Below are positions 743 to 46,914 of a stretch of 48,658 bases of DNA, piece by piece. The notes beneath the pieces were generated by a model. It had not been told where the DNA came from, did no database searches, and saw only the letters and a program-made list of their open reading frames with translations. The stretch is from Candidatus Omnitrophota bacterium. GTDB taxonomy: Bacteria; Omnitrophota; Omnitrophia; Omnitrophales; Aquincolibacteriaceae. The position numbers were made by a program, and so were the translations under genes. The stretch lies in the NCBI GenBank assembly GCA_043803685.1, contig JAZDJU010000059.1, positions 1-48,658 on the forward strand. The letters are read 5' to 3'. How positions within the stretch are numbered: position 1 is the first letter of the stretch; every line of letters begins with the position of its first letter.

Positions 743-3700
743 CCGAATTTCGGAACGCGTGACGGCGGCCTTCGGAGTAACGACGACGATTCCGGCTGTC
801 CCCGTTTCATACCGGAATCCCTTCGGACTGCTCGCTGCATCCACGAATTTACCATCGCCCCGTGTAAATGCGTCCTTGCTGTTCGCCAGGAGATACACGC
901 TCATGATCTTCTCCCCGATCTCTGAGCTCTTCGAGGCCACAGCATCCTGAATTTCAGTGTAAGTATAACCTTTGCCATCGGGGTAATATTTCTTCCCCGT
1001 CAGAACGATCATGGCAACCTTCCCGCTTTCCGTGATCCCGATAAGGTTGTGGGGATAACGCGCGGGACGCATCTTGACATGAAGGTTATTGTTCTCAATA
1101 TAATACTCGCCTGGCGCTAACTCATTCCAAGGCTTGGCTATCACAGGTTTATAGTCCCAGAGCCAGTTCTGCAACGCTCCCTTTTCAATCGCCGCCCGAA
1201 TCTCGACGGGCGTCGAACCCTTCTTCACATAAGGTTCCAGATCCACCGCTCCGGTAAGATACGGCGTCAGATCGATTTCCGTATAACCATCGCGCTGTGC
1301 CGCTTTGAGAAGTTCAGGCCTGTCCTGGGGAACGACCGGGTATTCCTTGCCACGCCTCAACTGATCGAGGCCGATATTCGCCCCGTACTTTGGCCCGCCA
1401 TCCGGGTTCTGGGTCAAAAACTGCGGAACGTCATACAACTGAAAAATATCGCTAAATTGGTGCGAGACACGCGCCAGCGGAACCTTCACGCCATTCTCGA
1501 TGAGTCTCTGTCCAAAGACCGCGAAATTTATGTCCCCACCCATATGTTTCTTCTCAGGATCCGCCGCACGATAGACACGCACACCGCCCTTAACAGCGGC
1601 GTCTTTCAGGAACCGGAGGTCCTCGGAAGACACATGACGGTCCTTCCAGGAAACGAACATACTGTAAGTTCTGTCCTGGAACGGTTCATTGAGCGCGTGA
1701 TAAAGCTTCCCGGTCTCGCCGTTATAAGCCACGAACCAGTCATTGTGGTAGAGGTCGTGATAGGAGTAGAGCGCAAGTTGCCCCACCGATGCATTGTTCA
1801 CAGGCAGGAGCGGCGTCTCAAACTCAGTCCACGGCCTATCCGCTCCCTTGGGAAGCCCATGATCGCTCGGATACATATTGTTGATCGCCTCATTCGCCAC
1901 GAATCGAAGATATTTCGTAGCCGGATCGATCACATCCACCACCTGTGGATATTGCTCTCGCATCTCAGAACGAGCGCTGCCGGTCTTTGAGACATTCTCT
2001 GAAGGATTACGCACCGCGGTCGTGGCTAACTGCATCCGGAGCGCGCCAAGATCGCCCTTGGCTTTCTTGTAAGTCCGCCCCCCGCCCAAGTAAGGCAGCG
2101 AGATAAGATCCTTCCGATGCTCCTGCTCAAGCTTCGATTTCTTTTCAGAAATTCGCGCACTTAGCGTCTTATCATCAACCGGTTTATCCGAGACTTCATT
2201 TTCATCCGCAACAGCTTGAATAGCCGCTTGCATCGCCTCAAACAATTTCTCATCTGAGAGGGTATAGACATCCTTCCAAGCCGAAATACCATCAATCCCC
2301 AAAAGAAGCGGGTGCATGGCGGTAAAAGCCTTGTACAGTGCCTCACCCATCGGAAGATCCTTAACATCCTCATAACGAACACCCGAAGTGTTCAGAAGCC
2401 CCTGGAACTGCGGGACAAATCTCTGATAAGACATCGCCTCGATCCCGGGCTGCAATACTTTCGGATCGGTCACTCCCGCCAGAGCACGAGCCGAGCCCAA
2501 CAATGCCGAAAGATCCGTCTTCGTCAACCGCGCCGACGGAATTCTTGAAATCTCTTCGGCGATCGCGTGTCCTTTTTGAACGCTGGAAAGCGCAGACGAA
2601 CCGTTGATCTTGAGGATCTCCTTTTGCACCTTTTCCCGGGTCTCGTCACTAATATCTTCACTGAAGATCAAACTCACGAGTTCCAGCCAATCCAGAGGAC
2701 CGTTGACATAGGCCGACAAAGAATGCTCCATCGCACTTTCAAAATCATCTGCGATCCCTAAACGGCTCTCGATCATGGACCATCTCTCGAACCCGCCCAC
2801 GATCTTCGGAAGCGTCTTGCGAACCACCGCATTTCCGTTTTCCTTAACCGTCTCCGCCTTGTAAGGAATGCTGTTGATCATCCGGGCGAGATAACTCGTT
2901 CCATCCGCATATTGAAGCGTCGTAAGGGTCTCATCCCCATAGACCACAAGCTTCTGCGCAGGTTCAGAATTCCCGACCTCCCGGACCTTTCCAGGCTCAA
3001 AATCGACCCCGAGAACAACACCCCCTTCTCCATGAAACTCCATCGGACCTTTCACTGTGGAATCGATGATCTTCGTCCTTGCAGGGATCCGAAGTGTTTC
3101 ACCATTGAGATAAATCTTTGAGCTCTCAATGACCACATGTTCGCTGATCTCCACCGTACCTGTCCCAGAAAACTCCACGTTCCTTAGGAGATAATGAAGG
3201 TCCGCACGATTCCCGTTATAAACCACCGTAATACCGTCTGCCTTCTTGACCTGGATCTCCTTGGGACCGGAATAATCCCTCAAATACTGCTCCCACATCA
3301 GGAAATACTGCTCCAGTCCCGCAATGTCACTGACAACACTGCCTTCCCCGTACGAGATCCCGTAGATCTTCGAGACGTACTTCTGAACAATGGGCCGGGC
3401 ACGCAATGTCACTACTGGCTTTTGTCCGGACTTCGGGAAAAAGCCGCCGAACACTGTCTCGAAAACGCTCACAGGAATACGCGCCAAGCGACCATCTTTT
3501 CCGTAAACACTCTGCTTGTTAAAATCCTCCACCAAGTGATAGCTCGTATCCGCCTTCTCGATCACAAAGAAGATGTTCTCGATCACCTGGGCGTCTTCAC
3601 CCTTCGAAGAATGATCGTACGCCAGCTTCACGAGCGCTTTCTCATTGGGCTTCTCACGAAAATCCTGCATCACTCCCGCCGCATCCGTCACATAGATCCC

Positions 3701-6700
3701 GCGCTGCGTCAACACGCGTCTTGCGATGTTGGCTTCCGCTCGAGACCAGATCTTTTGGAACGTCGGATTGCCATTCAATCCCGCTGTGTCCCAAGCAAAC
3801 TGGCTCATCAGAGGCTCAAGCGCATCCCGGTCCTTGGCACTCAACACTAAAGCTTCCGGACCCGCAGCAGCGATCTGAAAATCAGAAGGAAGTTCCGACA
3901 ACGGCTTGCCGCCAAGATGGATTTTCCCGAAACGGATACGTCCGTCACTGGCCAACCACAACTTGAAACCCTTACCCAGTTTCGGAAGGAGGAGCCACAT
4001 CACCCCACCCGTCAGCATATTCCCCTCAAGGAAGGTCATGCCCTCCGCCATCAAGGTCTTCGACCAGTGCTCGAACCGGATCCCGGCATTGGCCGCGCGA
4101 GTCTTCTCGCCGCCGTCTGAGACGTTCGCCGTATATTCCTGCAAATAAAAATCCCTGCCCATCCGGTCAAGGACACGTCTCCTGGATGTAAAGGTTCCGG
4201 GAAGATCATGATCTAAAGGCTTGTACGGTTTCGCCTCGCCGGGAAGAGTCACACCCGGGGACTGGATCGAGAGGAAGAACGTGATGTTCCCGTTGTATTT
4301 CTTGGACATCTCGCGCAAGAAACTCACGTAAGCCAGATACGTCCGGGGAGTAAAGTTCTGAATATTGATGATAAAGAACGGCTTGAGTTTGCCTTCTCTC
4401 ACGGCCTCCGCAAAGATCCCCTGCAAACGATCAAACTCGTCACTCGAGGTCTCGGCACTCGAAATCTCAAAAGGTGTCTCCGTATCCAAATGACGCTTCT
4501 CTTCACCCGTCAGCAACAGCTCTGAAGCCTGAGCCTTGCCCGGAACCTCCCGGACCACAAGCAGGGACGATGAGAAGAGAACCTCCTCGATCCACGTCGC
4601 AACCTCTACATCCTTGTTCCCCATCGCCAGTTTTTCCAACTCGTCCGTGAAAAGAATGCCGTCATTAAGGACTTCCTCACGAGACATTCCCGACGGAACA
4701 TTGCTTTGCGACAACACCGCCAAGTAATGGAGACGAACGATAGTGCTCTGGCGATCCTCATCCGCAGCATAAGGATGCTGCTTGAAATAAACCCGGGCTT
4801 CCTCAAGCGCTTTCTCTGAAACAGGCTCTGCCACACGATGCGGCTCCGCGATACGGCTGATCGGGTCCTTCAGCGAATCATAAAGCACGACACGAACATC
4901 CGATTCTTTCGGAGAAACAGGTGCTGTTTCAAAAGGAGGCGTTTTCAACCCAACGAAATCGAGAAGTTCCTGGTTCCCGAGCACCTGGAGAGGATCCGCG
5001 CTATGCACCAACGCGTAAAGATCGACCTCCGAGGCCTCCCCTTGCTGCAACTCATAAAGACGGTTCCCGATCACAAGTGACTTCCCATCCCATGGTTTTC
5101 CATACTCGACCACCCGACGAATACGAAGCTCGGCTCCCGTATCCATGCGCACCAGCATCAGCGAATCCCCGTCCCCACTCTTCTCAACCGAAAGAACACT
5201 GCTGAAGCTATCAGCAAGCGCACCCAACGTGATCCCAGTCTCTCCCAAATACGCCGCCACCTGGCGCATCTCGGAACGAGCCCCGCCAACCGCTGAGACA
5301 TCCCCCATGGGATTGCGCACCGCAGTCGTCGCTAACTGCATCCTGAGCGCTCCAAGATCGCCCTTGGCCTTCTTGTAAGTCCGCCCTCCACCCAAATACG
5401 GCAACGAAATGAGATCTTTCCGATGCTCCTTCTCAATCGTCGCAGTGAGCTTTGCCAAATCCTTGTTATCAGCCTCTTCACCAGCCATCTCTTTTTTAGT
5501 CACAAACGCTTGAACTGCCGCCTGCGTCTTCTCGAGCAATTTCCCAGAAGAAAGGGTATAAACATCTTCCCAGGTTGAAATGCCGGGAATTCCCAAGAGT
5601 AGCGGGTGCATGGCCGAAAAAGCTTTGTACAGAGCTTCACCCATCTGTAGATTTTTGACTTCATCGTAACGAACGCCCGACTTATTCAACAGATCCCGGA
5701 ATTGCGGGACAAACCTCTGCTGCGACATCGCCTCGATCCCGGGCTGCAACACACTCGGATTCGTCACACCCACCAAAGCACTAGCCGACCCTAACAGTGG
5801 AGAGAGATCCGTCTTCGTCAGTCGCGCCGACGGAATGTCTGCGATCACTTTGGCGATCGCATGTCCCTTTTGGACCGGCGAAAGTGCGGAGGAGCCGTTG
5901 ATCTTGAGTATTTCCTTTTGCACCTTCCCCCGGGTCTCATCACTAATATCCTCACTAAAGATCAAACTTACAAGCTCAAGCCAATCCAGAGGACCACTGA
6001 TATAGGCCGATAAAGGCCGCTCCATCGCGGCCTCAAATTCATCCTTGATCCCTAAACGGCTCTCGATCAAGGACCATCTCTCGAACCCCCCCACGATCTT
6101 AGGAAGCGTTTTGCGGACCACTAAAGAACTTTCGCTAGCCTTAACTTCCTCCGCCTTGTAGGGAATACTATTGACCATTCGTGTGAGGTAACTCGTCCCA
6201 TCCGCATATTGAAGCGTCGAGAGGGTCTCATCGCCATAGACCACAAGCCTGTCCGGCGTGGAACCATTGATCTCCTGGACCTTTCCAGACTCAAAATCAA
6301 CCCCAAGAACAACGCCACCCTCCCCATGAAACTCCATCGGACCCTTCACACTGGAATCAATGATCTTCGTTCTCGCCGGGATGCTCAGCATTTCACCTTG
6401 AAGCGCGATCTTCGAACTCTCGATCACAACATGCTCGCCGATCTCCACCGTCCCTGTCCCGGAAAACTCCACGTTCCTTAGGAGATAATGAAGGTCCGCC
6501 GGATTCCCGTTATAAGTCACCGTAATACCATCCGTCTTCTTGACCTCGATCTCCTTGGAACCGGCATAATCCCTCAAATACTGTTCCCACATCAGGAAAT
6601 ATTGCTCCAGTCCAGCGATATCGCTGACAACGCTCCCTTCCCCGTACGAGATCCCGTAGATTTTGGCAACATGTTTCTGAACGATCGGACGGGTGCGCAA

Positions 6701-9700
6701 TGTCACAACCGGCTTTTGTCCATCCTTCGGGAAAAAGCCGCCAAACACCGTCTCAAAAACGCTCACAGGAATACGGGCCAGGCGGCCGTCTTTTCCGTAA
6801 ACACTCTGCTTGTTAAAATCCTCCACCAAGTGATAGCTCGTGTCCGCCTTCTCGATCACAAAGAAGATGTTCTCGATCACATTGGCGTCTTCCCCCTTCG
6901 AGGAATGATCGTACGCCAGCTTCACGAGCGCTTTCTCATTGGGCTTCTCACGAAAATCCTGCATCACTCCCGCCGCATCCGTCACATAGATCCCGCGCTG
7001 TGTCAGCACGCGTCTTGCGATGTTGGCTACCGCCCGAGACCAGATCTTCTGGAACGTCGGATTGCTATTCAATCCCGGTGAATCCCAAGCAAATTGACTA
7101 CGGAGCTGCGCCAGAGCATCCCGATCCTTGGCGCTCAACACCAAAGCTTCCGGACCCGCAGCCGCGATCTGAAAATCAGCCGGGAGCTCTGACAGAGGTT
7201 TTCCGCCAAGATGGATCTTCCCGAACCGGATACGCCCATCACTCGCGAGCCAAAACTTAAAACCCTTACCCAGTTTCGGAAGAAGGAGCCACATCACCCC
7301 ACCCGTCAGCATGTTCCCCTCAAGGAAGGTCATCCCCTCCGCCATCAAGGTCTTCGACCAGTGCTCGAACCGGATCCCGGCATTGGCCGCGCGGGTCTTC
7401 TCGCCACCGTCTGAGACGTTGGCCGTATACTCTTCCAGATAAAAATCCCTACCCATACGCTCAAGAACACGCCGCCGCGATGTAAAAGTTCCGGGAAGAT
7501 CATGATCTAAAGGCTTGTACGGTTTCGCTTCCCCGGGAAGGTTCACACCCGGAGACTGGATCGAGAGGAAGAAGGTAATGTTCCCGTTGAATTTCCTGGA
7601 CATCTCGCGCAAGAAACTCACGTAAGCCAGGTAAGTCCGGGGAGTGAAATTCTGGATATTGATGATAAAGAAAGGCTTGATCTTGCCCGCTCTCACCACC
7701 TCCGCGAAGATCGCCTGAAGATGATCGAACTCGTCACTCGAGGTCTCCGCGCTCGTGATCTCAAAAGGGGTCTGGGTATCCAAATGACGCTTCTCATCAT
7801 CCGTCAGCAACAGCTCCGCAGCCTGAGCCTTCCCCGGAACCTCGCGAATAACGAGCAGGGACGATGAGAAAAGAACCTCCTCGATCCACGTCGCAATCTC
7901 TACATCCTTGTTCTCCATTGCCAGTTTTTCCAGCTCATTCGTAAACAGAATGCCATCCTTAAGAACCGACTCACGGGAACCCCCCGCCGGAACACTACTC
8001 TGAGACAACACCGCCAAATAATGGAGACGAACGATCGTGCTCTGACGATCCTCATCCACAGAATAAGGATGCTGTTTAAAATAAACCCGTGCTTCCTCAA
8101 GCGCTTTCTCCGAAATAGGCTCCCCTACGCGATGCGGCTCGGCGATCCGGCTGAGCGGATCCTTCAATGAATCGTAAAGAACCACGCGAACACCCGATTC
8201 TTTTGAAGCGGGAGTTTTTTCTAAAGAAGGCGTCTTCAAACCGACGAAATCGAGAAGTTCCTGGTTCCCGAGCGCCTGGAGAGGATCCGCGCTATGGACT
8301 AACTCATAAAGATCGACCTCGGGGCTCTCCCCTCCCTGCAACTCATAAAGACGGTTCCCGATAACAAGAGACCTCCCGTCCCACGGTTGTCCATACTCGA
8401 TCACCCGACGAATCCGAAGCTCGGCTCCGGTATCCGCCCTTATCAGCATCAGCGAATCACCGTCCCCGCTCTTCTCAACAGAAAGAACACCCCTGAAGCT
8501 ATCAGCAAGTTCACCTAACGTGATACGTGTCTCTCCCAAATACGCCGCCACAGTACGCATCTCGGAGCGGGCGGAGGCGCTGGGGACATTGCGGACCTCG
8601 GAACGCTTAGTCCCTATGGAGGCTTCGGCTTGCGATATTCTGGCCCTGATCTTGGAGAGTTCAGATTCCGAAAAACTCTTATTAGCAATGATCTCATTCC
8701 ACTCTTTGGAGTCACGCTGAGTCGTTTGCAATTGAGCCGCCAAAGCCTCTATTTTGTCGACGGTCGATGCCTCCTCCGCTCGCCACACTTCGAGGCTCTT
8801 CTGCCAGGTCTGCACACGATCGCTCTCCTGAGCCGCCGGCGCAGCCGGAGATGTTGCAGGAGCTGCCGGAGCATTGGTGGCAGGAGGCGCGGTTGGAGGT
8901 GCGCCCGCCTGTGTTTTTTTCTGAGCCATCTTGGATCTCAGCCACTCCACGAACCCGCCAGCAAGACGGATGAAAGTGCTGGCAATAATAAAAGTCGCCC
9001 ATCCCATCATCCAGGGATCGTTGCCTTGAAGTGCCAGATGGAAAAGCGCGCTTCCGTCCATGCCGCCGACTCCAGACCCTACTGACACAAAGAAAGTATT
9101 CGGATCAAAATGCTGATGGAAGTACCCGAAGAGACTCTGAAGAGTATGCGAGTAAATCATCCCAAAGGTCAAACCCAATGCGGCAACCGCCCGATACATA
9201 GAGCGTCTGTCGGCTTTTCCCGCCTCCATCAGAACACCATCCCAATAGTCCGCCACAGGCTTGGCCAAGAAAGCAAACCAAAGCGGCATCGTGAGCGGAA
9301 GGTAATAGAAAGGCACCACAGCCGCTAGAAGGGGCAAAGCAAAGCCCACGGTGATCAAAGCTCCAGATGCCAAGAGAAGAGATGATCCGATCCTCCGGAG
9401 GGCAACCGCCTCATATTCTTTCCTTTTATCTCCGCGAAAAACCTCTCTTAAAAACCATCCCACGAATCCAGCTACCGCTGCTCCCATCCCGTATTTAAAG
9501 ACCAGAGCACCGGACAAACCCAATATACTAAAACCGGCAACTCCGGATATGATCCCCAGAACGATGATGGATCCAACGACCAAACCGACCGCGGCGCCAC
9601 GCCAGGATCTTTTATAAGAATCCGCCCACATTTGAAAAAAAAGCTTTGGCGTCTTGCTTTCAGCCGTTTTGATGAATGCCTTACCGTCTCCATATTTATC

Positions 9701-32381: not shown

Positions 32382-32439
32382 ATGAGTATCTCGCTCATTG
32401 TTATGTCTCAATATATATCGAGAGTTACGATCTGTCGAG

Positions 32440-32467
32440 ACTATATATTTTGAATTATAACTGTCAA
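32440..32467 (-). promoter_or_regulatory. Sigma70 promoter of the AbiE-like operon with an overlapping inverted repeat
   Basis: TTGACA (32467-32462), 16-nt spacer, TATAGT (32445-32440). AATATATA (32410-32417) and TATATATT (32442-32449) form an inverted pair that may be an autoregulatory operator. Confidence 0.7.
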
Positions 32468-32496
32468 CGCGGATGGGGTCAATAGCTGAAGCGGAT

Positions 32497-32615
32497 GTCA
32501 TTGCGAGGAGCGATTTTTGCGACGCGGCAATCTCGCTTTTAAAACAGACTGTCCGCCAGAGGACGGATCCGTCCAATGTTTTATGGCGGACTTCACCCTT
32601 CGGGTTCGCAATGAC
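32497..32615. repeat. REP-like palindromic element (GTCATTGCGA...TCGCAATGAC) containing a nested TCCGCCA...TGGCGGA hairpin
   Basis: Perfect 10-bp terminal inverted repeat, internal GCGACGCGGCAATCTC and CTTCACCCTTCGGG, and an inner palindrome at 32552-32590. Confidence 0.75.
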
Positions 32616-32695: not shown

Positions 32696-32726
32696 GAGGC
32701 ACCTATCCCCAAGGGATAGGTACTTC
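32696..32726. repeat. Short hairpin just past the giant B stop codon
   Basis: ACCTATCCC-CAA-GGGATAGGT, a perfect 9-bp stem with imperfect extension. Confidence 0.5.
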
Positions 32727-32751
32727 TGCGTGCGGATCCTTGGATGATCCG

Positions 32752-38700: not shown

Positions 38701-41700
38701 CTGCACCATCAGGTGCGGCATGATGGACGTAAAATGACTTCCAGGGCCGATCAGGATCACATCCTGGGGTTTTGCCAGCCTGATAGACTCAAGAAGCGCA
38801 TGGTTGGGCTCAAGACGAACGGGCGCGGTCCCCCCGCGCAAAATATTCACGAACTCACCGAATCCATCCAGCAACCCGATCTTCAGGATCTTCGAAAGAT
38901 TGATGAGTTCCGTGATGTTCGTCTGTTTTTTGACAAAACGGCTCACCCAATACACGCGTGCGCCGGCTTTGCTTTCAAAAAGCGGTCCCTCCTTCACCTT
39001 CCCTGTCGCCTGATCCCACTCCCTGCCGGTCCCATCCGGCATCACGATCTTCACGTTCCCTTCGTCACTGGTGAAGGTGAGATTATCGGGATCACTGTCA
39101 TCCAATTTCCACAACTTGCCGTCCACCTGCAAAGCAATTCCGCCGAATTCAGCTGTGATCTCGATACCCTCTTCGATCCCGATCGTTCGCGATGCGTCGC
39201 CCGGTACCACCTCTTTCCTTCCAGGTTCCCCCTCCTTCAACATGGGCCTTGTGACCGACACAGTTCCATTCTCCCCTCGGGTGATCACCGCGGGATTCGG
39301 ATAGGCCGTCACCGGCTTTCCCGTCTTCGGGTCCGTACTCGGCATGCCGATCGCGAGCGTGTGGCCCTCGTATTCCGCGTACAACGTCTTGGGATCCAGA
39401 CTCGAGAGCGTCACTGAAAATTGCTCAGCCCCCGCCGCATCCACAGCCTCTTTCAGCGCCTGGTCATATTTCTTCTGCGCCTCCCGGCTGCCAAATGCGG
39501 GCTTATCTTTTTTCTTTTCGTCGGCCTCTGCAAACAACCCCTTATTCACCAGAAAACCAAGGAGATAAATATTCCGGATACTCTGACCGTTCACCTCGAT
39601 CAGCTTGGCTTTCTCGCCTTCCTGAAGTGTTTCGTTCCTGTTCTGGATCTCCCGATTAAGTTCGTCCACCTTCCGCACAGCTGCCAAAAGGATCCGGGCG
39701 AAATAAAAGAAATCCGGCTGAAGCTCTAAAGGCTGCGCCTCTATCCCGGCATCCGCGATAGTCCTGTGGATAAAAGGAAGCACCATTTCTTCGAATGTGG
39801 GATTTTTTCCCTTCTCCACCGAGATCCTGCCGCCATCACCCATCAGGTGGATCTTTTTATCGAGCGTCATCGCTCCGGAAGTAGCGTTCATAAGATCTCC
39901 CAAAGGCGGCGTGATCCCAAAACCGGCATCGTTCAAAGTCTTGATCAATTTCGCGGTGCTTCCCCCGTCATCGGTGTTTCCCACAACGCTTTTGATCCCC
40001 GCATGAGCGCGGATCCCGAGACTTTCAAGCACGGGCACCCAGAGCGTTCCCGACGAAGTGCCGCCCGTAATGGTAATGACCTGGGGTTTTTCTTTCGCAG
40101 CTTCCGGCATGTCCGCCCGGGTGGGATGCTCCGGAGAGAAATTGTCCCGGAATTTCAAAAGGTCCTCGATCTTTCCCCCTTCATTCCGTAGACTCTCCGT
40201 CAAAAGAAAGCTCAGACGCTCGAGAAGATATTCCTCACGCTTTTTTCCGTTCTTCCGGACTTTCTCCGCGTACCGGTTGCGCAACTGGATAATCTGCGTC
40301 GCATAATGTAGATCGGTGGTCAATGCCTCGACATTGCCGCCGACAACGCCCGCGTCCACAGCTTCCATGATCGCGCTTTCCACCACCCCGCTGAGAACCC
40401 AACCATTCGGCCTGTCAGTCGAGATCAGATCGTGGAAAAAAGGAGGCTGGGACCGGATACTCTCCAGCACTTCCAGAAGATCGGCCTGCCATTTTTGGTC
40501 CTGGGAACGCGCGAAGAGCGCCTGCGCCACATGCCGGAATCCCGAGAAATAAGCTTTATTTTTAAGAAGTCCTTCCAACTTTTCTTTAGCTTTGTTATCT
40601 TTCCCCTCGATCAACAAACCGCTGATGGTCGCGAATGCGCGGCCTTCGGACACCGTCAAGGGCCGGTACCCCACCCAACGAGGCTCCCCTTCGGTATCCC
40701 TGATCTTTTCCGCAAATTCGCGCTGACGCGCGGAGTCTTTAATACTGGCGGGAGTATCCCCGACATTCACAAATCGCGTCTGATATTGCGAACCGCTCGA
40801 AGCACCGGATGCCTTCAAATTCCGATCCGCGATCATTCCAAAAAGATTCCAGGCCAAGGCTTGGGTCTCCCCATTTTTGGGGTCAACCGTCCACATTCGC
40901 GTCAGATGCACATCGTCCATACCGTTCTTGGGATCATAGTCCGCGTACCCGCCGTTCAGATATTGCGCGTCAACATCTGTTTTGAGTTCGTACAAAAGAT
41001 CCGCCTGTACGATGGCCGTGTTCGAGGAGATGAGCAATTCCGCGCCTGAGCTTCCATTTTCCATCACCGCGAAATGGTTTCGGATAAATGCTTGTCGCTC
41101 TTTGTCTAGATCTTTCCAGTTTTTCAAATCTTTATTCACGGCCAACAACAGTTCCTGCGTCAAAACATATCCATCATCACTGATGCTGAAGTACTCGTTG
41201 TCTTTCTCCTCCCGGAGTTTTTGCACGGCACCCTTCAGCGCCTTGGGGTCCCCCTTCCGGAGAGATTCGAGTTTATTTTCAAGAACCGCCAGTTTTTCAC
41301 CGAACTCGGACCAGACCTTGTCATGTCTGGCACCCTTCATCTTCTTCCGGTGCGGGATAATGCCCCAGTCCGTGTAAAGAAGCAGTTGTTGGCCGTCCCC
41401 GTTAAAAAAGAAATTTCCTTTACCTTCGATCTTTCCATCTGACGGTTTGCCGCCAGCAACGGCTTGCGCGTCCTGGCCCAGGATCTCCAGATAGGTGATC
41501 AGTGAGGGGTTTGTAAGAGATCGATCGATCGCGGTCGACATCTCGCCGAACGCCACCTGGAAATAGGCTGTCTTTTTATTCCGGGTCTTCAGGATCGATG
41601 AAACCTGGACCAGGTGATCGCCATGCCCACCTTCGGGCGTCGTTTGAAAGATCTCGACCTCCTCGGGGTCAACGCCCAGGTACGACCTGACTTTTTCGGG

Positions 41701-44700
41701 ATCAAGATACTGGACAGTCACTTCTTTCTTGCGGCTCCCCGGAGAGAATTCCGCGATCTTCGGATCGAGCACGAAGGCATTCTTGACCCTGTCATATCCG
41801 GCAAGATATTCATCCTTAACGAGCAGGCCAAGGATCTTTTCTCCGACCACGACCGCGGGCTTAACACCCGGAGTCCGGTAAGAACCCTGCACGGTGTAAC
41901 CAATGTTTGTCTTTTTAAGACCCGCGCGGGCGGCGGTCTTGTGAATAAAACTTGAAAAGCGGGTCGCGTAGCCGCCGGCCATGATCACAGGACGAACACC
42001 GAAATGATCGCGGAACAGATCCTGCTGGTATTGGATCGATTCCAATGTCTGACCAATATTTCGCAATTTCTGGTGCATCATTTTCAGCGCGGCCAATGCC
42101 CGAGATGTGGCCTCCTCGCGGCGATCTTCCGGTAAACGCTGATCCAGGATAAGGTCCTCAACACCCATGAGTTTATGAACGCTATCCAGCATCTGTTGGG
42201 TCAACTTGATCCCCGTCGCAATTTCTTGTCCGACCAGCTGATGGTCGCCGCGTTCCGGAGATTCTTTTGGGGAAGCAACCGCTTGCTTGTGGTATGAATG
42301 ATTCCCGCGAAGTCTTTCGACCAGGATCTTGAAGAACCGCCTTCGCTCATCATCTTCGCGCCCGAAACTCGAGCGGCTCCCATCACCGAATCCCGAGCTC
42401 ATCGTCGCGGACAAGATAGGAAGAACAGTAATCTCAGCTACGGTATCAAGCTTCACTTTGCCGTCATCATGTAACACACCGTCATATCTTTCATCCCGTA
42501 TCTCCACCACAGGCGGACGCACATTTTTCCCGGCGGTCAAGTGATAGCGGAAATTCGGATAGATCGTCTTGAGCTCTTCACGAAAAAGATTTTTGTCTAC
42601 TACTTTTTCAGTGAGCCGTTCGGTGTAATATTCGCCCAAAAGACCTTCCGCATGGATGTCCCCACTCACAGGATCTTCGCTTACGCCCCCAAGGATTTCC
42701 AGGATCTTTTCAGTTTCTTTCCTGCCAAGCCGAAGACTTGAATGATAATTTTCATCCTTTTCAACATTCCATTTCCCTGATCCCTCCCCGGCTTTCCCCT
42801 TAAAATTAAGCCCGTATTTTGTGATCACTCCGTTAGCATACAAAGGAATAGTAAAGTGAGATTTTCTCCCCAAAAGTCCAGGCTCGGTCTTTTTATGATT
42901 AAAGTATTTCGCGAGGGGATCCAGAACCTTCTCCTTCATTAACTCCCCCTCGTGATCCGCAAAAAATCCGATCCTCACCCCTCTTTCGATAAGTTCGCCA
43001 AGGGCTATCAGGGTATCTTCGCGGTCTGTGGCCAGCGCTTCCGTATCCATGGTCCTCCCGCCGAGATCGGCGGTCGTGGGCTTACGACCCACGATCACAT
43101 TGTCCACGGAGAATCCAATGAATTCGGGCAAGGGATGGGTGGCAGGGTCTTTTCCGTTATTCAGCAAGAGCTCTTGTAACCATACCGTTGTCGCGCCGGG
43201 ACCTGCGCCTATCTTCTTCACTTGAGGGTGATCCATCACCTGCCCCTGATCATAATCCACCGCGAGGACCGGCAACCCATCAATACCCGTAAGGATGCCG
43301 TCCCGGTCTTCCGGAGAAGACGTCAGTGCACCGATAAAATATCCGTTCTTCTCTTCAAGATTAAATTCCTTGAGAAATTCTTCCATCACGGTTTTTTTTG
43401 TAACAGGCTCTCTTTTATCATCCGCCCGGGTGATATCAATGGATGCCTCGCCGCCTTCACGGATCGCAATATCCACGGCTTCTCCGTTCTCACCCACCGG
43501 CAACTTCACAACCACATTCATCCGCATGCCTTGCGACGAGCTACCTCTCATTTCGGAACGCCGTACATTATGAAAAACACCCGTCTCCTCTGCCTTTGAA
43601 AGAACATTCCTGATGAATTGCCTTCTCGAGTCTTCTTCTGTGTCCGACACGTTATTCCCGGGCCACGCAGCGGAGGCGAACGGCGCCAGAGCGATCACTG
43701 AAACGCTGCCATCATCCATCGGATCCCGTTCTTCGATGAACGGGAATGACATATTGCCGGCGGGTGTCTTTTTATAAAAATTTGGATAAATGGACTCAAA
43801 AGACTCCGCAGGCACACGACGGCCTTGGGAATCGCGTGTGATCGAATCGTAATAATGTCCTAACGATCCCTCAAGGACCATTCCCGCGGCAGTTTCCCGG
43901 ATCGATCCAAGACTTTTTAAAATAACCTGTTTGGTTTCCTGGTTCATACGGAAGGGACGCCCATAGTCCGCATCGAAAAGCTGCTCGATCCCCGCGGAGG
44001 CAACGTTCACATGAAATTTCGTGGTCATAAGACTGGAATAAAAATCGATCCGTGCTGTTTTTTCTCCAAGTTGAGAGCCGACGAGTTTGCCCAGAGGCTC
44101 TCCGATGCGCTCAAAAGCGACCTTCGAACTGCTATCCGTAAAAAAAACAATTTGAACGCCTCTCAGAACAAGCTTTGCCAGCGCCTCGGCGATCCCGCGC
44201 CGGTCGGCCATAAGCCCTTCTTTGGACGCACTGCCCGATATGGATTTTTTGAGCCCAAGCACGGTATCATCAATATCAAGACCGACGAACAAGGGGAGCT
44301 TGTTCTTGGGAAGGTCCGCAAGTCTTGCGAGTTCCCGCTCCGTAGCGCCGACCCCGACTCCGATACCCCGAACACCCGGAATGATCCCCTTTTGATCCGC
44401 ATCGACTCCAAGCACGGTCAATCCTTTGACCCCAGACATAGCCCCATCTCGCGCATCGACGCTCTGGTTTTCGTTACCGATGTAAATGCCGCGCTTGGGA
44501 TCAAGTCCCGTGGAGCGGACATAATCTTCCATAGCGTTCTTTTTGGTGGGCATCGGGTGCATGGCAAACTCGACCGTATAATTACCGCCCTCCCGAAGCT
44601 TAACAGTCGCCACGGAACCATCCGCTTTAACAATATCCACCAAATAGCTTTCTCTCACCACTTTCCGCACCTCGGAGCGAGAAATATTCGGATCCTTCGA

Positions 44701-46914
44701 ATGGCTAACTTCAGTCGCTTTCCTAAGGGCCTCGTCGGCCCCAAGCCCCATCGCACGAAAATTCGCCGCATTACGCTCTAACTCCGAATACGTATCCCCG
44801 ACTTTGAAAGGATTCTCCTTAAAAGAGACCGAAACGAGAGAGCCATCGCCCAATTGTAGAAATGTATCCTCCTCATTGCCCGTCCCGTAAGGATCATTCA
44901 ATAAATCCACAACGGTCAGGCCTCCTTCTTGCCTAACTTCAGAACGAGCCAAATCAAGCGTAGGAGAACCAATGATGGTCTTAGCAAAAGCGGACTTGAG
45001 GCCGGAGTTCTCTGGTTCGGAATTGATCATGCCGAGGACAAGCTCACGAATATCGCGAGCCCAATCCTTGGTTGTGGCAATCCCGGTCACGGCGACTCGT
45101 TGGGCGCGATCAATAAGACTAAGAAGTGCCGCGATCTGCGAAGTCTTGATATCACGACTGCCCAACATCGACCGAAGATAGATTTCATGATCTCGCTTTG
45201 AGACTTCGGCGATGCGCGGGGTGATCTGGATGTAAGAGCAGTTCCTGGATGAGGCGAGTTTCTTAAGGCCGTCGGCGTGGAAACCACCGGTGACGATCAC
45301 AGCGCGTTGCTGCTTCGTCTCGCTCATTTTCTTCAAGGCGTTTTGGAACATCTTGTTTTCGCGAAGAATGGCAGTCTCGTAAAACTCGACCGCCTTCGCG
45401 AAAACAGACTGAAGACTGGAGACTGAAGACTGCAGTCCCCTCACCCCATCCCTCTCCCCCTGGGAGAGGACCGGCGAGGGCAAAGCTTTTTGCTGTGGTC
45501 TGTGGTCTGCGGTCTGTAGTCCCGCCGCAAGCTCCTCGGATGAGATATGCAAGTTCCGGAGTTCTTCGTACTCGGAACGCGTCATCTCAAGGCTGAATAG
45601 ACGCTTTAAGAGGTAGAGCTTGCGTGCGGCGGTGAGATACTCTTTCTCTTCCGGTGTCTGAGCCAAAGCGGTCTGGATCATGTCTTTCAGGCGCACGGTC
45701 TCTTCGTGGAGCCCCTTCCCTTCCATCTCCTGCATCAGGATGATGTATTGGGCATAGAGCGTCCAGTTCGGCCACGCCTTCATCGAAAAATCTTTCGGGA
45801 GTTTCTCGAAAGCCTGATCAAATGCGGCGCGAAGCGGCGAATATTCACGACCCACGTTCCACGTGCCACGCTCCACGCCTCCCGTGGCCCTTGGCTCGTG
45901 GCTCGTGGCTCGAAACTTCCCAATGATCTCCTTCGAAATTCCCCGTTTCTCGAGTTCCTTAATGAAGGACGCCTCTTCGACACTCGCTTTATCGCGGTCG
46001 ATCTTGGAGCCGATGGCCTGGAGACGGAAATAGCGGATGAGGGACGGATACTGATCCTGATAAAAAGCATCGGAAAGGTCGGTCTTGAGATGTTTCTTGC
46101 TTCCTTCTCCAAGGGTCTTGATCCAGCTTCCAAAAGAGACGGTCCCGGAACCTAGAGCCTCTTCCTGGCGGACGAGGCTTAGGAGATCCTTGTTCAGCTT
46201 GGAAGCAAAGCGTTTGTCGATCGACGCACGGAGCTTCATTAAATAATTCTCAGCGGTCTTTTCTTTCTTCGCAACCTGGATGAACGCCTCACGATCTTTT
46301 TTGTAGGCATCTAAATCCTCCATGCCAAAAGCCTGCATGGAGCCGGATGACGGATGGAGGATGGAGGATGGAGTAAGCGGTTTTTCGCCTTCCGCCATCC
46401 GCCCTCCGCCATCCATTTTTTGATTGATCAAAAAATTCTCCGGCCCCGTCAAATAGCCTTCCTGCATGAGCTTGTCCGTGACCTTGCGATTGAAATCGGG
46501 ATTTCCGGGAAAGAGGCGAAAGAGTTCGGGGTTGAGTTTGCCGGCGGCGCCTTCGAGGAACATCGTCTTTACGGAAGAGTTCTTTTCGATATAACCCAGA
46601 AGCTTCTCGATATTATTTTCCGCCTGATAATTTCCGTGCGCGGATTGGATATGAATGAATGCCGGGGCTTTGGGATCGCCCGTGACCGTCTCGGTCACTT
46701 GACCGAATTCTGCGGGGATGGCCAGCGTACTCGCCGTAAGTGAAGACACTTCTCCCGCGAGCGTGGACACACCCGTCGCGGCGAATGTTTCAGGAGTAAT
46801 TCCAAGACTGGTAAGAGTAAAATTAAAAACGACGGCGGAGGCGATGAACTTCATGGCGGGAGTACGTTGGTCCATTGTGGGGGCCCATCCTTTTCTTTGG
46901 ATTTTAAAAGCCAT
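32752..46914 (-). CDS. Giant multidomain protein B, 4720 aa, modules delimited by RSExR
   Basis: Uninterrupted ORF in the track. Hydrophobic N-terminus (MKFIASAVVFNFTLTSLGITPETFA), N-domain shared with giant A, ten RSE[VM]R plus one RSEAR, and recognisable enzyme motifs. The exact start (46914, 46875 or 46854) is uncertain. Confidence 0.95.
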   Translation of the reverse strand: MAFKIQRKGWAPTMDQRTPAMKFIASAVVFNFTLTSLGITPETFAATGVSTLAGEVSSLTASTLAIPAEFGQVTETVTGDPKAPAFIHIQSAHGNYQAENNIEKLLGYIEKNSSVKTMFLEGAAGKLNPELFRLFPGNPDFNRKVTDKLMQEGYLTGPENFLINQKMDGGGRMAEGEKPLTPSSILHPSSGSMQAFGMEDLDAYKKDREAFIQVAKKEKTAENYLMKLRASIDKRFASKLNKDLLSLVRQEEALGSGTVSFGSWIKTLGEGSKKHLKTDLSDAFYQDQYPSLIRYFRLQAIGSKIDRDKASVEEASFIKELEKRGISKEIIGKFRATSHEPRATGGVERGTWNVGREYSPLRAAFDQAFEKLPKDFSMKAWPNWTLYAQYIILMQEMEGKGLHEETVRLKDMIQTALAQTPEEKEYLTAARKLYLLKRLFSLEMTRSEYEELRNLHISSEELAAGLQTADHRPQQKALPSPVLSQGERDGVRGLQSSVSSLQSVFAKAVEFYETAILRENKMFQNALKKMSETKQQRAVIVTGGFHADGLKKLASSRNCSYIQITPRIAEVSKRDHEIYLRSMLGSRDIKTSQIAALLSLIDRAQRVAVTGIATTKDWARDIRELVLGMINSEPENSGLKSAFAKTIIGSPTLDLARSEVRQEGGLTVVDLLNDPYGTGNEEDTFLQLGDGSLVSVSFKENPFKVGDTYSELERNAANFRAMGLGADEALRKATEVSHSKDPNISRSEVRKVVRESYLVDIVKADGSVATVKLREGGNYTVEFAMHPMPTKKNAMEDYVRSTGLDPKRGIYIGNENQSVDARDGAMSGVKGLTVLGVDADQKGIIPGVRGIGVGVGATERELARLADLPKNKLPLFVGLDIDDTVLGLKKSISGSASKEGLMADRRGIAEALAKLVLRGVQIVFFTDSSSKVAFERIGEPLGKLVGSQLGEKTARIDFYSSLMTTKFHVNVASAGIEQLFDADYGRPFRMNQETKQVILKSLGSIRETAAGMVLEGSLGHYYDSITRDSQGRRVPAESFESIYPNFYKKTPAGNMSFPFIEERDPMDDGSVSVIALAPFASAAWPGNNVSDTEEDSRRQFIRNVLSKAEETGVFHNVRRSEMRGSSSQGMRMNVVVKLPVGENGEAVDIAIREGGEASIDITRADDKREPVTKKTVMEEFLKEFNLEEKNGYFIGALTSSPEDRDGILTGIDGLPVLAVDYDQGQVMDHPQVKKIGAGPGATTVWLQELLLNNGKDPATHPLPEFIGFSVDNVIVGRKPTTADLGGRTMDTEALATDREDTLIALGELIERGVRIGFFADHEGELMKEKVLDPLAKYFNHKKTEPGLLGRKSHFTIPLYANGVITKYGLNFKGKAGEGSGKWNVEKDENYHSSLRLGRKETEKILEILGGVSEDPVSGDIHAEGLLGEYYTERLTEKVVDKNLFREELKTIYPNFRYHLTAGKNVRPPVVEIRDERYDGVLHDDGKVKLDTVAEITVLPILSATMSSGFGDGSRSSFGREDDERRRFFKILVERLRGNHSYHKQAVASPKESPERGDHQLVGQEIATGIKLTQQMLDSVHKLMGVEDLILDQRLPEDRREEATSRALAALKMMHQKLRNIGQTLESIQYQQDLFRDHFGVRPVIMAGGYATRFSSFIHKTAARAGLKKTNIGYTVQGSYRTPGVKPAVVVGEKILGLLVKDEYLAGYDRVKNAFVLDPKIAEFSPGSRKKEVTVQYLDPEKVRSYLGVDPEEVEIFQTTPEGGHGDHLVQVSSILKTRNKKTAYFQVAFGEMSTAIDRSLTNPSLITYLEILGQDAQAVAGGKPSDGKIEGKGNFFFNGDGQQLLLYTDWGIIPHRKKMKGARHDKVWSEFGEKLAVLENKLESLRKGDPKALKGAVQKLREEKDNEYFSISDDGYVLTQELLLAVNKDLKNWKDLDKERQAFIRNHFAVMENGSSGAELLISSNTAIVQADLLYELKTDVDAQYLNGGYADYDPKNGMDDVHLTRMWTVDPKNGETQALAWNLFGMIADRNLKASGASSGSQYQTRFVNVGDTPASIKDSARQREFAEKIRDTEGEPRWVGYRPLTVSEGRAFATISGLLIEGKDNKAKEKLEGLLKNKAYFSGFRHVAQALFARSQDQKWQADLLEVLESIRSQPPFFHDLISTDRPNGWVLSGVVESAIMEAVDAGVVGGNVEALTTDLHYATQIIQLRNRYAEKVRKNGKKREEYLLERLSFLLTESLRNEGGKIEDLLKFRDNFSPEHPTRADMPEAAKEKPQVITITGGTSSGTLWVPVLESLGIRAHAGIKSVVGNTDDGGSTAKLIKTLNDAGFGITPPLGDLMNATSGAMTLDKKIHLMGDGGRISVEKGKNPTFEEMVLPFIHRTIADAGIEAQPLELQPDFFYFARILLAAVRKVDELNREIQNRNETLQEGEKAKLIEVNGQSIRNIYLLGFLVNKGLFAEADEKKKDKPAFGSREAQKKYDQALKEAVDAAGAEQFSVTLSSLDPKTLYAEYEGHTLAIGMPSTDPKTGKPVTAYPNPAVITRGENGTVSVTRPMLKEGEPGRKEVVPGDASRTIGIEEGIEITAEFGGIALQVDGKLWKLDDSDPDNLTFTSDEGNVKIVMPDGTGREWDQATGKVKEGPLFESKAGARVYWVSRFVKKQTNITELINLSKILKIGLLDGFGEFVNILRGGTAPVRLEPNHALLESIRLAKPQDVILIGPGSHFTSIMPHLMVQGMPEALQTARGNGARVILVMNGSFDNETANYSPYELLETLEVTIKERSKNLRLTDMITDIAIAVPDHRIAREKVKEEIEKQVERMLGGGEFNEVFKARSLNSVEDKQKLLWDEAALEEAVRLLSKDAKRKSSLGELAALVKKDKHDPQSRLSKKLREIDEDPSALMPSEVAWLILAALEEKESILKANAAASAMSADRLDEAAAKTVFLDFLGEQTSLSIEQGAEALRELQFFVLLHAMYPQIKFSIRTDVGAASDAAKKSRGGIALMWEEKELIKSRWPELNEHIIKFPTRTVVAKRVAKREQGKFEDRVLFDPKVVAETLAPHIKRSEMRSFTPAERAIVDQAGQTLVNALGQRAKYDVKTGTWTPITETDLLRMKFDMGLVLGSADERVPEEAAELLKLLRLNGSEGMEVITSGKYGPPEKVLLALNKPDGKGGRITEAEYFAAKMAAKGVPVKEKFIEKESISTVENLWKSRAIILKEMPSAKRILLMGMPWMQAKQAGVFVVEFTKQEGKTLAEAGIELVSYTPYIPDIASMSDEKAMAWLKVGLDEASKVKNWPNQNGKDGKPLSAPVPMGSDVENAMKTLSALLTRVEVESQVTNNQGPGLRSEGEASKKSRSEVRMATLGNFDKIGSRQDSSVGDVFPVSGHGKVLLETQGLRPLMLQNARSEVRHSFLKLFFLAGAFAVVLSAPSAKESFPAQFRIEPQVQVRYTAREFGNEIGMTGRIFNNFFPLMDAVNVVLIGEEDAYRLDNDENIVRMSREYQMLPATFSEMAGFALIKGQYHRRMADLITDSLHLPAVSLPVIFLKKKPGGSNLVAFAHELSHLGQVAYPEGRTSLDGYAAIAQEREAFLNSMLVFRLTNPKSTFFDFARAQDGVTKERFPDAAIQRILASNPGSHLETERQMWQAIDVEIGPRQSLDQLSAQELNDLKTRVLKKNASAANVVGQANEPDDASSESSSQEVRTAPPLRDDDFQGIRGGEFADALKRWYSELFETAIVPVERVEMVLGYQRSFAETYQREAKKELMDVVLQLRLGQIQSLIYIGLKKGNGASSIAAEIRPVLRKAAEATSDGSESRKTLLLLSDRAMDVVEVLKKKYEEIQKQGRSEVRLKPAQEKQFNRIEDRKPQTMTVSSLLFPAFAMPDLAHFQFQLMGVDTHVLNAVFAALAVITFTRLNGYLVLYLISGYKRFERSGSELTGEQALKARLSRDARYMALFAGLACGEYLKYFIGELTLGILLFQFTWITALFFLEMSVYRFVFLKFFNFIRSIAGMDRKDASGTKVVPESRSEVRLTEAEFQKAKKELKESLFLDYFLLGESFNGREYNFIYDLRWKRVSRRIAAAETLGRSKDFRAVPILIDALGDSRESVRNAVEAALQEIGGSVATTALNEYSWKERERREVAESNSVSSDDDEDRGYWEGIGGPGGSRSEVRLTPAQEKQFQKAMSDLQPKWWDGRFNDSGVNRKLAAVRILRDKKALPELLAALEHESAFVRKAVAEALAVLKDFTAIPVLTVALDKEKDGAVWFAIAEALWQCGDTKITGRLIAALTDASAYVRSMSAELLGKHKEKNAVSALIDALKDAPTSAARALRDIKDDRLIQLQRYFVWISYGMGSYNALDAEAIQVIKANLERGEETKATYVEEQEQSHLEGEDNSVTDEGWPKGGGPFPGPGTDDRYKVVDVPGELKITIVRSEARSSIRAENGDKADVAPSEVRTETPVVSQVSLANTSSLGTKIRVALGVVEKIVSPLVSSAPAFAEEIKPQLFVGTAHYQQVSVVPSAFATKWPVFGKIISRFATASTERMVIDQRQGIPDAASVLPLVTFALYNARSEVRLALIADASEVAAFEKELAALSAKGALPQNFKVQAFGDENEFVGAFAGFYNSAAPFGKSVALITDRENSVVTQKIGSRKHLLSVVGASDPLKQTASTLLAADKLLNESIWSLGYHFVSVEKLGGLEALMAELTTYVAAQAKVLASA
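33910..34680 (-). repeat. HEAT/PBS-lyase-like repeats in two RSEVR-delimited modules of giant B
   Basis: AVPILIDALGDSRESVRNAVEAALQEIG, ALPELLAALEHESAFVRKAVAEALA and LIAALTDASAYVRSMSAELLG. Confidence 0.85.
35800..36681 (-). other. Internal signal-like segment plus HExxH zinc-metallopeptidase-like module in giant B
   Basis: RSEVR-HSFLKLFFLAGAFAVVLSAPSA, then AFAHELSHLGQ (36220-36234) with a downstream QEREAF. Confidence 0.55.
37030..37570 (-). other. DUF218 (YdcF/ElyC/SanA)-like domain in giant B
   Basis: DMGLVLGS, AAELL, VITSG, TEAEYFA...GVP...IEKESISTVENL and RILLM. Confidence 0.75.
37730..40086 (-). other. YvcK/CofD (UPF0052)-like domain in giant B, with large insertions
   Basis: VITITGGTS, NTDDGGST, PPLGDLMN, ILIGPGSHFTSIMPHL and FDPKVVA. 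Confidence 0.75.
40730..42000 (-). other. GlmU/NTP-transferase-like domain in giant B
   Basis: PVIMAGGYATRFSSFIHKT, QTTPEGGHGDHL and QVAFGEM parallel ILAAGxGTRM.S..PK, Q...LGTGHA and LYGD. Confidence 0.6.
42300..44664 (-). other. Two circularly permuted HAD-like (class IIB) phosphatase units in giant B
   Basis: Unit 1: EGG..VEF..TKKNAM..IYIGNE..D, then GLDIDDTV..VFFTDS. Unit 2, after RSEMR: EGGEASIDI..TKKTVM..YFIGA..D, then GFSVDNVI..GFFADH. Confidence 0.65.
45405..45521. repeat. In-frame heptamer palindromic insertion with a nested CCCCTCACCCC...GGGAGAGG hairpin
   Basis: (NAGACTG)x4 and (CTGYRGT)x4 arms enclose CCCCTCACCCCATCCCTCTCCCCCTGGGAGAGGACCGGCGAGGG (45437-45480). Encodes LQTADHRPQQKALPSPVLSQGERDGVRGLQSSVSSLQS. 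Confidence 0.8.
45846..45912. repeat. In-frame heptamer palindromic insertion
   Basis: (CACGNNC)x4 facing (CGTGGCT-like)x4. Encodes RATSHEPRATGGVERGTWNVGRE. Confidence 0.8.
46345..46414. repeat. In-frame heptamer palindromic insertion
   Basis: (GGATGGA-like)x4 facing (NTCCGCC)x3. Encodes MDGGGRMAEGEKPLTPSSILHPSS, which is absent at the aligned position of giant A. Confidence 0.8.

Follow-up and report, generated by a model that had tools for sequence, protein, structure and literature searches.

A recurrent pentapeptide at module joints suggests that giant proteins of Omnitrophota may be bacterial polyproteins

Introduction

Does a bacterial protein of many thousand residues work as a single molecule, or is it cut into smaller proteins after synthesis? 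The question is raised by a contig of 48,658 nucleotides from a Candidatus Omnitrophota bacterium (GenBank assembly GCA_043803685.1, contig JAZDJU010000059.1; the whole stretch is referred to below as the window), in which two giant open reading frames (ORFs), A and B, repeatedly encode a pentapeptide of the form RSE[VMIA]R. An earlier note made from the letters of the window had proposed that this pentapeptide is a protease cleavage site, or an export or chaperone recognition site, by which one giant gene yields many separate proteins, as in viral polyproteins. It is a stated open question in the field whether such giants stay whole as megaproteins or are divided up, and a shared junction motif makes it directly testable.

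Giant proteins from the same phylum are treated in two preprints. The first, from 2026 (bioRxiv 10.64898/2026.06.07.730766), defines 'multi-enzyme metabolic cluster' giants, in which many Pfam families tile one polypeptide of at least 10 kaa (thousand amino acids); internal signal-peptide calls are suppressed there as artefacts, and the accessible part of its text has no word beginning with 'cleav' or 'motif'. The second, from 2023, on Archaeovorins (bioRxiv 10.1101/2023.11.21.568195), proposes proteolysis via C39/S8 domains and gives the cleavage points as unknown. Seymour et al. 2023 make no mention of cleavage. As far as the accessible parts of the two preprints go, their giants share with ours the cargo (PGM/PMM, receiver domains, methyltransferase, HAD and HEAT) and a signal peptide mixed with transmembrane helices, but neither text reports a junction motif. 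Set against the definition of a multi-enzyme metabolic cluster given there, A has at least 10,106 amino acids (aa) but no Pfam match, and B has the domains CofD, DUF218 and HEAT but, at 4720 aa, is below the 10-kaa cut-off. In the literature on Omnitrophota giants and on bacterial polyproteins we found no published description of the junction motif.

Results

The motif in the window and in related giant proteins

A regular-expression search of the translations found 7 copies of RSE[VMIA]R in A and 11 in B, and the numbers and coordinates given in the earlier note proved exact (Table 1). From amino acid composition 0.039 copies are expected in A and 0.022 in B, and the highest counts among 2000 residue-shuffled versions of each were 3 and 1, respectively, which rules out chance or low complexity as the source of the motif. 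The commonest 5-mer of A and B together is RSEVR itself, with 10 copies.

The three degenerate copies that had been listed alongside fared differently. PSEVR in B was borne out, being aligned with a conserved RSE.R or RAE.R in 7 of 10 homologues of the tail. For QREVR in A the support is divided: one related locus (L030) has a full RSEVR at this place but the other orthologues have partial forms (RSEVQ, RNEVR, RREVS). The surroundings of QREVR look alignable and possibly folded. SQEVR (B aa 3700) lies in a region covered by no homologue.

Both giants begin with a K/R-rich stretch followed by a hydrophobic segment and then by a head domain, and the heads of A and B are homologous over about 600 aa (26% identity, E value 1e-39). 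Both giants thereby belong to a family marked by an N-terminal head with the motifs IQ[SD]AH.N, LEGA.G and TGGFH. A scan for heads in one genome per species yielded 48 related loci (L001-L048), which by record title comprise 31 from Omnitrophota/Omnitrophica, 12 from 'uncultured bacterium', 4 from Elusimicrobia and 1 from Auribacterota. An exhaustive head profile search returned 8493 protein clusters at E <=1e-3, 3235 of them at E <=1e-30. In the best 150 of the 8493 clusters the head is confined to the first ~650 aa and the proteins are up to 7853 aa long; their 150 representatives (452,081 aa) were used as the family set for motif counts.

The strict motif RSE[VMIA]R occurs 345 times in the family set against 2.17 expected and is present in 85 of the 150 representatives, in none of which it falls inside the head. 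Motif frequency is thus far above background in the window as well as in head-bearing relatives. Two or more copies were found in 81 of the 107 head proteins of at least 1500 aa and a single copy in five. When all ORFs of at least 1000 aa in the related loci and the window were pooled, 111 strict copies were counted in 147,961 aa. The other frames, each 100-999 aa long and 191,764 aa in sum, had 4 copies, every one of them in a fragment of a giant.

Form of the motif and level of constraint

In the family as a whole the motif takes the general form R-[S/A]-E-x-R, with S preferred over A. Among 561 instances of RSE.R the variable position is V in 22%, L in 18%, A in 18%, M in 14%, S in 11% and I in 7%, and the sequence logo has about 4 bits at each fixed position, 1.1 bit at x and no more than 0.3 bit at any position of the flanks. 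Flanking positions hold fewer L/F/W/Y residues than the background (8-12% vs 18%), A/G/S/T reach 46% at position -1, Pro is enriched 1.7-fold upstream of the motif and reduced to 0.4-fold at +1, and acidic residues rise from 3% at -1 to about 19% at +1 to +5. By these measures the pentapeptide is a short linear motif with unconserved, linker-like flanks. At +1 the residues L/F/W/Y/R/K together account for 15% as compared with 31% in the background (p = 6e-21); this depletion and that of Pro would suit, if weakly, a cut behind the final Arg.

The earlier note had also stated that the codons of the motif vary synonymously and that conservation therefore acts on the peptide. In the window the codons do vary (CGT/CGC/CGG/AGG/AGA, TCC/TCT/TCG and GAA/GAG). 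Codon statistics for 174 distinct instances from the window and the 48 related loci showed background usage for Glu and for the last Arg, and the residue class at position 4 (V, L, A, M, S, I, T) is spelled by 30 or more different codons. A bias is seen in the first two codons of the motif, with CGY at the first Arg in 81% vs 44% in the background and TCN at Ser in 99% vs 70%. The constraint is therefore mainly at the peptide level but not purely demonstrably so. TCN and AGY serine codons are not joined by single synonymous steps, and the TCN bias could for this reason follow from selection on Ser/Ala.

The codon bias is a point in favour of a rival explanation, that the 15 nucleotides act as such in the DNA or mRNA, whether as a joint at which modules recombine, as a site of RNase attack or by admitting ribosomes internally. 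Shuffled modules do carry motifs at their ends, and transcript cleavage has been raised as an open question (bioRxiv 10.1101/2023.11.21.568195, in the part accessible). Such a signal is nevertheless poorly matched by the background codon usage at Glu and the last Arg and by a fourth position that is set by residue class and whose codons are in many cases unable to act as a start; the alternation of S and A and the sharp four-residue logo are features of a peptide, and the exclusive use of TCN can be explained by purifying selection. We regard a nucleic-acid-level signal as very improbable.

Relic start codons were not evident at the motif, Met not being enriched in the 30 residues past it (407 vs 427 expected), although some Tat signals (see below) keep an M.

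The motif lies at joints of protein-sized modules

The position of the motif relative to known protein families was examined in the relatives, whose cargo includes PGM/PMM, UDP-glucose dehydrogenase (UGDH), UDPGP, PPDK, receiver (REC) domains, HAD hydrolases, ACP, MarC and methyltransferase. In 13 proteins with 29 Pfam stretches between them, no such stretch contained a motif. Multi-domain enzymes were left unsplit (PGM/PMM I-II-III in one case, UGDH N-mid-C in two, PPDK_N plus PEP-utilizers in one), a complete MarC profile (3-202 of 203) begins one residue past a motif, and REC, ACP and HAD hydrolase each have motifs on either side. This indicated that the motif separates whole proteins rather than domains.

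Within the window itself family matches are few: in A nothing from Pfam or NCBIfam passes the threshold, and the matches in B are limited to CofD, DUF218 and HEAT. The earlier statement that nearly all copies fall between recognisable domains was thus overstated for the window, although the relatives and the structural models agree with it, apart from one clear exception in the tail of B. The tandem modules of A are 85% identical over 1108 aligned columns, and each has RSEMR at both of its borders. In a model of B aa 4160-4720 (13 alignment rows, mean predicted local distance difference test score (pLDDT) 62) the motifs at aa 4169 and 4433 and the PSEVR at aa 4452 are in coil of pLDDT <50, the last two within a disordered stretch of about 80 residues.

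Homology blocks also tend to end where motifs stand. BLAST blocks began at a motif in 102 of 389 cases against 24.6 at random (maximum 42 in 500 trials) and ended at one in 55 of 346 against 18.6, a clustering that is partly inflated because a shared motif lengthens the alignments. The 603 inter-motif segments have a median length of 218 aa (interquartile range 103-442). In B-type giants the head and the C-terminal tail are common and the middle cargo varies among genomes, and among 707 motif-delimited segments the head, with 92 proteins, is the only universal module. Taken together, R-[S/A]-E-x-R is a family-wide mark at the joints of protein-sized modules.

The conservation of individual sites was examined for 382 motifs lying within alignments of at most 70% identity. 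The partner had a motif in identical columns in 91 of the 382 (control 424/14,217) and within 15 aa in 124 (control 77/14,217). Counterparts are thus well above control and yet lacking for two thirds of the motifs, meaning that sites are conserved far above background and have a high turnover.

An uncut chain would offer another explanation for a motif at module joints. The giants would then be single membrane-tethered multi-enzyme chains and the motif a linker or docking site bound by a scaffold, a chaperone or the translocon. A position in flexible linkers suits binding and cleavage equally well, and the high turnover and the one copy within a fold show that individual sites are dispensable. 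The 2026 preprint, to judge from its accessible text, takes the giants as membrane-anchored single polypeptides (bioRxiv 10.64898/2026.06.07.730766). Against an uncut chain stand the separation of whole enzymes, rather than domains, by the motif and the commonness of double sites, 7-50 aa apart (65 of the 603 segments are shorter than 50 aa).

Export signals follow the motif

Export signals were called by simple patterns and hydropathy scans rather than by a trained predictor. On this basis a strongly hydrophobic 15-mer was found within 28 aa after the motif in 5.2% of 705 instances, as compared with 0.4% before the motif and 2.0% at random places. Many of these stretches resemble the signal peptides of protein N-termini. 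An example in the window is the stretch HSFLKLFFLAGAFAVVLSAPSA directly behind the RSEVR at B aa 3407, which we infer to be a signal of the general secretion (Sec) type. Cysteine is nearly absent from the giants (0.0% of A when rounded; 308 Cys in 370,260 residues of family bodies), and in these proteins 4 lipobox Cys were found behind motifs vs 1.2 expected.

The bodies of 152 proteins were also scanned with a strict pattern for twin-arginine translocation (Tat) signals, [ST]-R-R-x-F/L-L/K followed by an uncharged hydrophobic stretch. Seven of the eight found follow a motif by at most 35 aa, where 0.48 would be expected, and the remaining one follows by 40 aa; a relaxed scan gave more signals, several of which keep an M just ahead of SRR. 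In the window's own giants A and B the strict pattern scan found none. The Tat machinery recognises its signals in the cytoplasm, where they stand at or close to a free N-terminus, and these signals are therefore the strongest argument that a new N-terminus would arise near the motif on the cytoplasmic side. Export signals placed downstream of the sites imply that cutting would precede export.

Tat, lipobox and Sec-type signals right behind motifs would have no clear use deep in an uncut chain, and we consider the docking explanation unlikely. The export or chaperone recognition site offered as an alternative in the earlier note likewise drew no specific support from these data.

Search for a cutting enzyme

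If the motif is cut, an enzyme with matching specificity is required, and the head is one candidate. It might be a hydrolase of the TIKI/ChaN/Ere kind that cuts in cis or in trans, either outside the cytoplasm or before its own export. It is the sole module common to all motif-bearing giants, and two His, two Glu and one Arg (H94, E122, E175, R466, H494) are invariant in 50 heads. In an AlphaFold2 model of the A head (pLDDT 85, predicted template modelling score 0.76; residues 551-585, the 35 before the first motif, <50) each invariant His and Glu stands directly behind a β-strand.

The TIKI family likewise has a set of two His and two Glu, and the spacing of 28 between H94 and E122 recurs in His85-Glu113 of Bcr135 and His3902-Glu3930 of RRSP (PMC6254334, accessible part). 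H94, E122, E175 and H494 of the head are candidate counterparts of the TIKI catalytic residues. With the TIKI/TraB/ChaN/erythromycin-esterase group the head would share a parallel-sheet alpha/beta core with two His and two Glu (plus Arg) at strand ends and the His-Glu spacing, but it differs in a helical insertion of about 300 aa and in scores below the family thresholds. The B head matched PF04187 (ChaN, Tiki superfamily) with E 0.007 and 16.8 bits against a cut-off of 27.7, weak matches of this kind were obtained for 18 of 50 heads (best E 6e-4), and in none of the 50 was the Pfam threshold for TIKI/TraB/ChaN/Ere membership reached. A search of PDB sequences with the head profile returned nothing but a spurious match (E 0.027). 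In Foldseek the list was dominated by long helical proteins because of the helical insert; EreC (6xcs_A) came at rank 7 (E 0.4, template modelling (TM) score 0.19/0.25), BcR135 (2rad_B) at rank 13 and 3b55 at rank 25, the E values of the three being 0.4-0.8, and no match reached 1e-3. The head therefore looks weakly TIKI/ChaN-like.

Motif type also follows the phylogeny of the heads. On a quick tree of 66 heads, in which the A head groups with type-A giants, nine proteins without the motif form one clade and three with a different repeat, A[ASQG]SLG, form another (Shimodaira-Hasegawa-like approximate likelihood ratio test, 100). This repeat occurs 27 times vs 4.7 expected in the whole set, with its first copy just behind the head, and may be an alternative punctuation code. 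Relatives with A[ASQG]SLG and without R[SA]ExR are P0102, P0111, P0120 and P0132. There are also single-variant lineages, RSESR being used almost exclusively in P0082 and P0105.

Tracking of head clades by the motif would suit a head that cuts its own chain, but any protease encoded in the genome would track clade-specific motifs equally well. The K/R-then-hydrophobic N-terminus predicts a head outside the cytoplasm while the Tat signals imply a cytoplasmic cut, no family match reaches its threshold (best Pfam E 6e-4; Foldseek E >=0.4, TM <=0.25), heads occur on motif-less giants too, and the TIKI superfamily includes non-proteases such as esterases and haem binders. That the head is the processing protease is in our view improbable.

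Two other sources were considered and set aside. The B tail gave no Pfam match, no ESM Atlas match at >=0.9 and an empty PDB profile search when examined as a hidden protease, and a homology search with B aa 3841-4720 returned 12 matches, swamped by unrelated HEAT-repeat proteins and none of them of use. The conserved neighbour genes of the giants (patatin, S33-type alpha/beta hydrolase, PilZ, acyl-CoA synthetase, DUF520, thiolase and NAD synthase) look like ordinary synteny.

The S33-type hydrolase gene (Hydrolase_4, E 9e-54; L023:7864-8826) is directly upstream of the giant in seven loci (L012, L023, L030, L034, L036, L040 and L042), in a conserved block with patatin+cNMP, PilZ, acyl-CoA synthetase, DUF520 and thiolase.

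Other features of the window

The features of the window are collected in Table 1. The C-terminal end of B is conserved in other B-type tails, e.g. in L003, L005, L019 and L025, and the largest other tail cluster likewise ends in ...sA. Between the giants lies a pair of genes for an NTP_transf_8/AbiEii-like nucleotidyltransferase (E 1e-11) and an AbiEi_2-like regulator (E 2e-5), and a second toxin-antitoxin-like pair and a short ORF that looks HicB-like are located beyond B.

Table 1. Features of the 48,658-nucleotide window, with positions counted from its first letter.
Feature	Positions	Strand	Remarks
Giant ORF A	2..30319	-	10106 aa in window; 3' end beyond window start; ORF listing
Head of A, aa 1-585	28565..30319	-	N-terminal hydrophobic anchor/signal, alpha/beta core, ~300-aa helical insert
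RSEIR, A aa 586	28550..28564	-	directly behind head; R[SA]E.R kept in 4/11 aligned type-A sequences
QREVR (degenerate), A aa 664	28316..28330	-	
Motif-free stretch, A aa 591-5737	13109..28549	-	no family match; several hydrophobic helices
RSEVR, A aa 5738	13094..13108	-	28 aa past hydrophobic helix and K/R-rich loop
RSEVR, A aa 7239	8591..8605	-	first of double site
RSEMR, A aa 7251	8555..8569	-	start of tandem unit 1
Tandem modules of A, aa 7256-8347 and 8353-9449	1973..8554	-	~1095 aa each
RSEMR, A aa 8348	5264..5278	-	joint of tandem units 1/2
RSEMR, A aa 9450	1958..1972	-	end of tandem unit 2
RSEIR, A aa 9855	743..757	-	regular expression
Type IV toxin-antitoxin-like pair	30911..31879 and 31689..32576	-	between A and B; ORFs overlapping
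Giant ORF B	32752..46914	-	4720 aa, complete; ORF listing
Head of B, aa 1-656	44947..46914	-	homologous to A head
RSEVR, B aa 657	44932..44946	-	directly behind head
RSEVR, B aa 746	44665..44679	-	collinear P0077 alignment begins here; P0077 motif at matching place
RSEMR, B aa 1119	43546..43560	-	P0077 motif at matching spacing
CofD/YvcK-like region, B aa 2702-2813	38476..38811	-	PF01933, E 3e-12; within 1942-aa module
RSEMR, B aa 3066	37705..37719	-	before DUF218 module; P0077 alignment stops, L019 alignment begins here
DUF218 module, B aa 3071-3356	36847..37704	-	286 aa, motif on each side; PF02698, E 9.8e-9, excised segment
RSEVR, B aa 3357	36832..36846	-	regular expression
RSEVR, B aa 3407	36682..36696	-	signal-peptide-like stretch directly after
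Signal-peptide-like stretch, HSFLKLFFLAGAFAVVLSAPSA..., B after RSEVR at aa 3407	36607..36681	-	hydropathy scans
RSEVR, B aa 3846	35365..35379	-	regular expression
RSEVR, B aa 4028	34819..34833	-	HEAT module start; P0091/P0113 alignments begin at motif in both partners
RSEVR, B aa 4169	34396..34410	-	HEAT module start; model coil, pLDDT <50
RSEAR, B aa 4433	33604..33618	-	~80-residue coil, pLDDT <50
PSEVR (degenerate), B aa 4452	33547..33561	-	before tail; coil in model
RSEVR, B aa 4571	33190..33204	-	exception: within folded tail
Conserved C-terminal tail of B-type giants, B aa 4457-4720	32755..33546	-	Rossmann-like alpha/beta fold, ends ...AQAKVLASA
C-terminal end ...AQAKVLASA of B	32755..32790	-	
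HicB-like-looking short ORF	47359..47562	+	no family match
Type VII toxin-antitoxin-like pair	47660..47971 and 47974..48387	-	MntA-like nucleotidyltransferase and HI0074/HepT-like HEPN; beyond B

Discussion

Our analysis suggests that the motif is probably a site of cytoplasmic endoproteolysis that releases the modules, and that the giants are, to the same degree of likelihood, bacterial polyproteins. According to this proposal a giant would be translated as one chain behind its signal-anchored head, and while it is being translated, or soon afterwards, a sequence-specific endopeptidase acting on the cytoplasmic side would recognise and cut the motif. Soluble enzymes would remain in the cytoplasm once released, pieces that start with Sec-, lipoprotein- or Tat-type signal peptides would be exported, and membrane pieces would go into the membrane. 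That one gene could yield many proteins through a site acting at the peptide level, as the earlier note had proposed, is supported by the short linear form of the motif, by its position at the bounds of complete families, by the homology blocks and the duplication in A that end at it and by the signals that follow it; the proposal is qualified by the site at B aa 4571, by the long motif-free part of A and by the two thirds of alignable sites that are unmatched.

These and several other observations weigh against endoproteolysis at the motif. The motif at B aa 4571 is part of a confidently modelled β-strand (pLDDT >90) of the folded tail, where 10 homologues have a conserved NPKAAVV, and 5147 aa of A (aa 591-5737) are without any motif; if A is processed, this stretch would itself stay a giant product. 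No counterpart within 15 aa was found in the partner for 258 of the 382 motifs, even the first site of A (aa 586) is retained in only 4 of 11 aligned type-A sequences, and 21 of the 107 head proteins of at least 1500 aa have no motif at all. The tails fall into several clusters with local hhalign probabilities all <5%, so there is no universal tail. With regard to the enzyme, the predicted extracytoplasmic position of the head is a poor fit with cytoplasmic cutting, the Foldseek matches of the B tail are generic Rossmann/GT-B folds only (E >=0.01), and there is no evident endopeptidase among the conserved neighbours. Finally, the first two codons of the motif are biased and the CGY preference of the first Arg is without explanation, the clustering of block ends is in part an effect of alignment, and the export signals come from simple scans.

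Among known systems the closest likeness is to viral polyproteins. Picornavirus and potyvirus polyproteins are cut at 3C-type sites, and flavivirus polyproteins also use the host signal peptidase. The giants share with them one long ORF, a short, degenerate and lineage-specific site between complete proteins, internal signals behind some junctions, double sites and site turnover. They differ in being encoded in a cellular genome and in carrying housekeeping-type enzymes as well as membrane and exported proteins, and cleavage is here proposed from sequence. Short basic or mixed motifs between precursor units, with a dedicated endoprotease, are also known from repeat precursors cut by Kex2/furin and from the adhesins of Mycoplasma hyopneumoniae (cleavage motif S/T-X-F|X-D/E), but these cuts are made after export, on secreted or surface proteins, whereas in the giants the export signals are downstream of the sites.

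MARTX toxins are cut by an internal Cys protease at simple Leu sites after activation inside host cells. Like the giants they are very large bacterial proteins with a modular array of cargo, in their case released by cuts in the inter-module linkers; the giants differ in being almost free of Cys, in having a five-residue site and in a cargo that is not toxin-like. One MARTX effector, RRSP, is itself an endopeptidase of the TIKI fold (PMC6254334, accessible part).

More tentatively, and with rather less confidence than for cleavage at the motif, Omnitrophota and some neighbouring lineages might make a sizeable share of their proteome in the form of polyproteins rather than from operons, with cuts in the cytoplasm at R-[S/A]-E-x-R and with clade-specific punctuation codes (RSESR-only, A-A-S-L-G), much as virus families differ in theirs. 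One chain behind the common signal-anchored head would then comprise dozens of unrelated enzymes, membrane proteins and Sec, Tat or lipoprotein substrates. The motif predicts the products exactly (B would give 12 pieces and A 8 or more) and provides a precise target for proteomics, permits structure and function to be predicted module by module, and gives the specificity of the protease to be sought. If confirmed, polyprotein expression as known from viruses would have a cellular counterpart. The annotation of giant bacterial genes would change, and many internal 'transmembrane helices' may then be signal peptides of released products.

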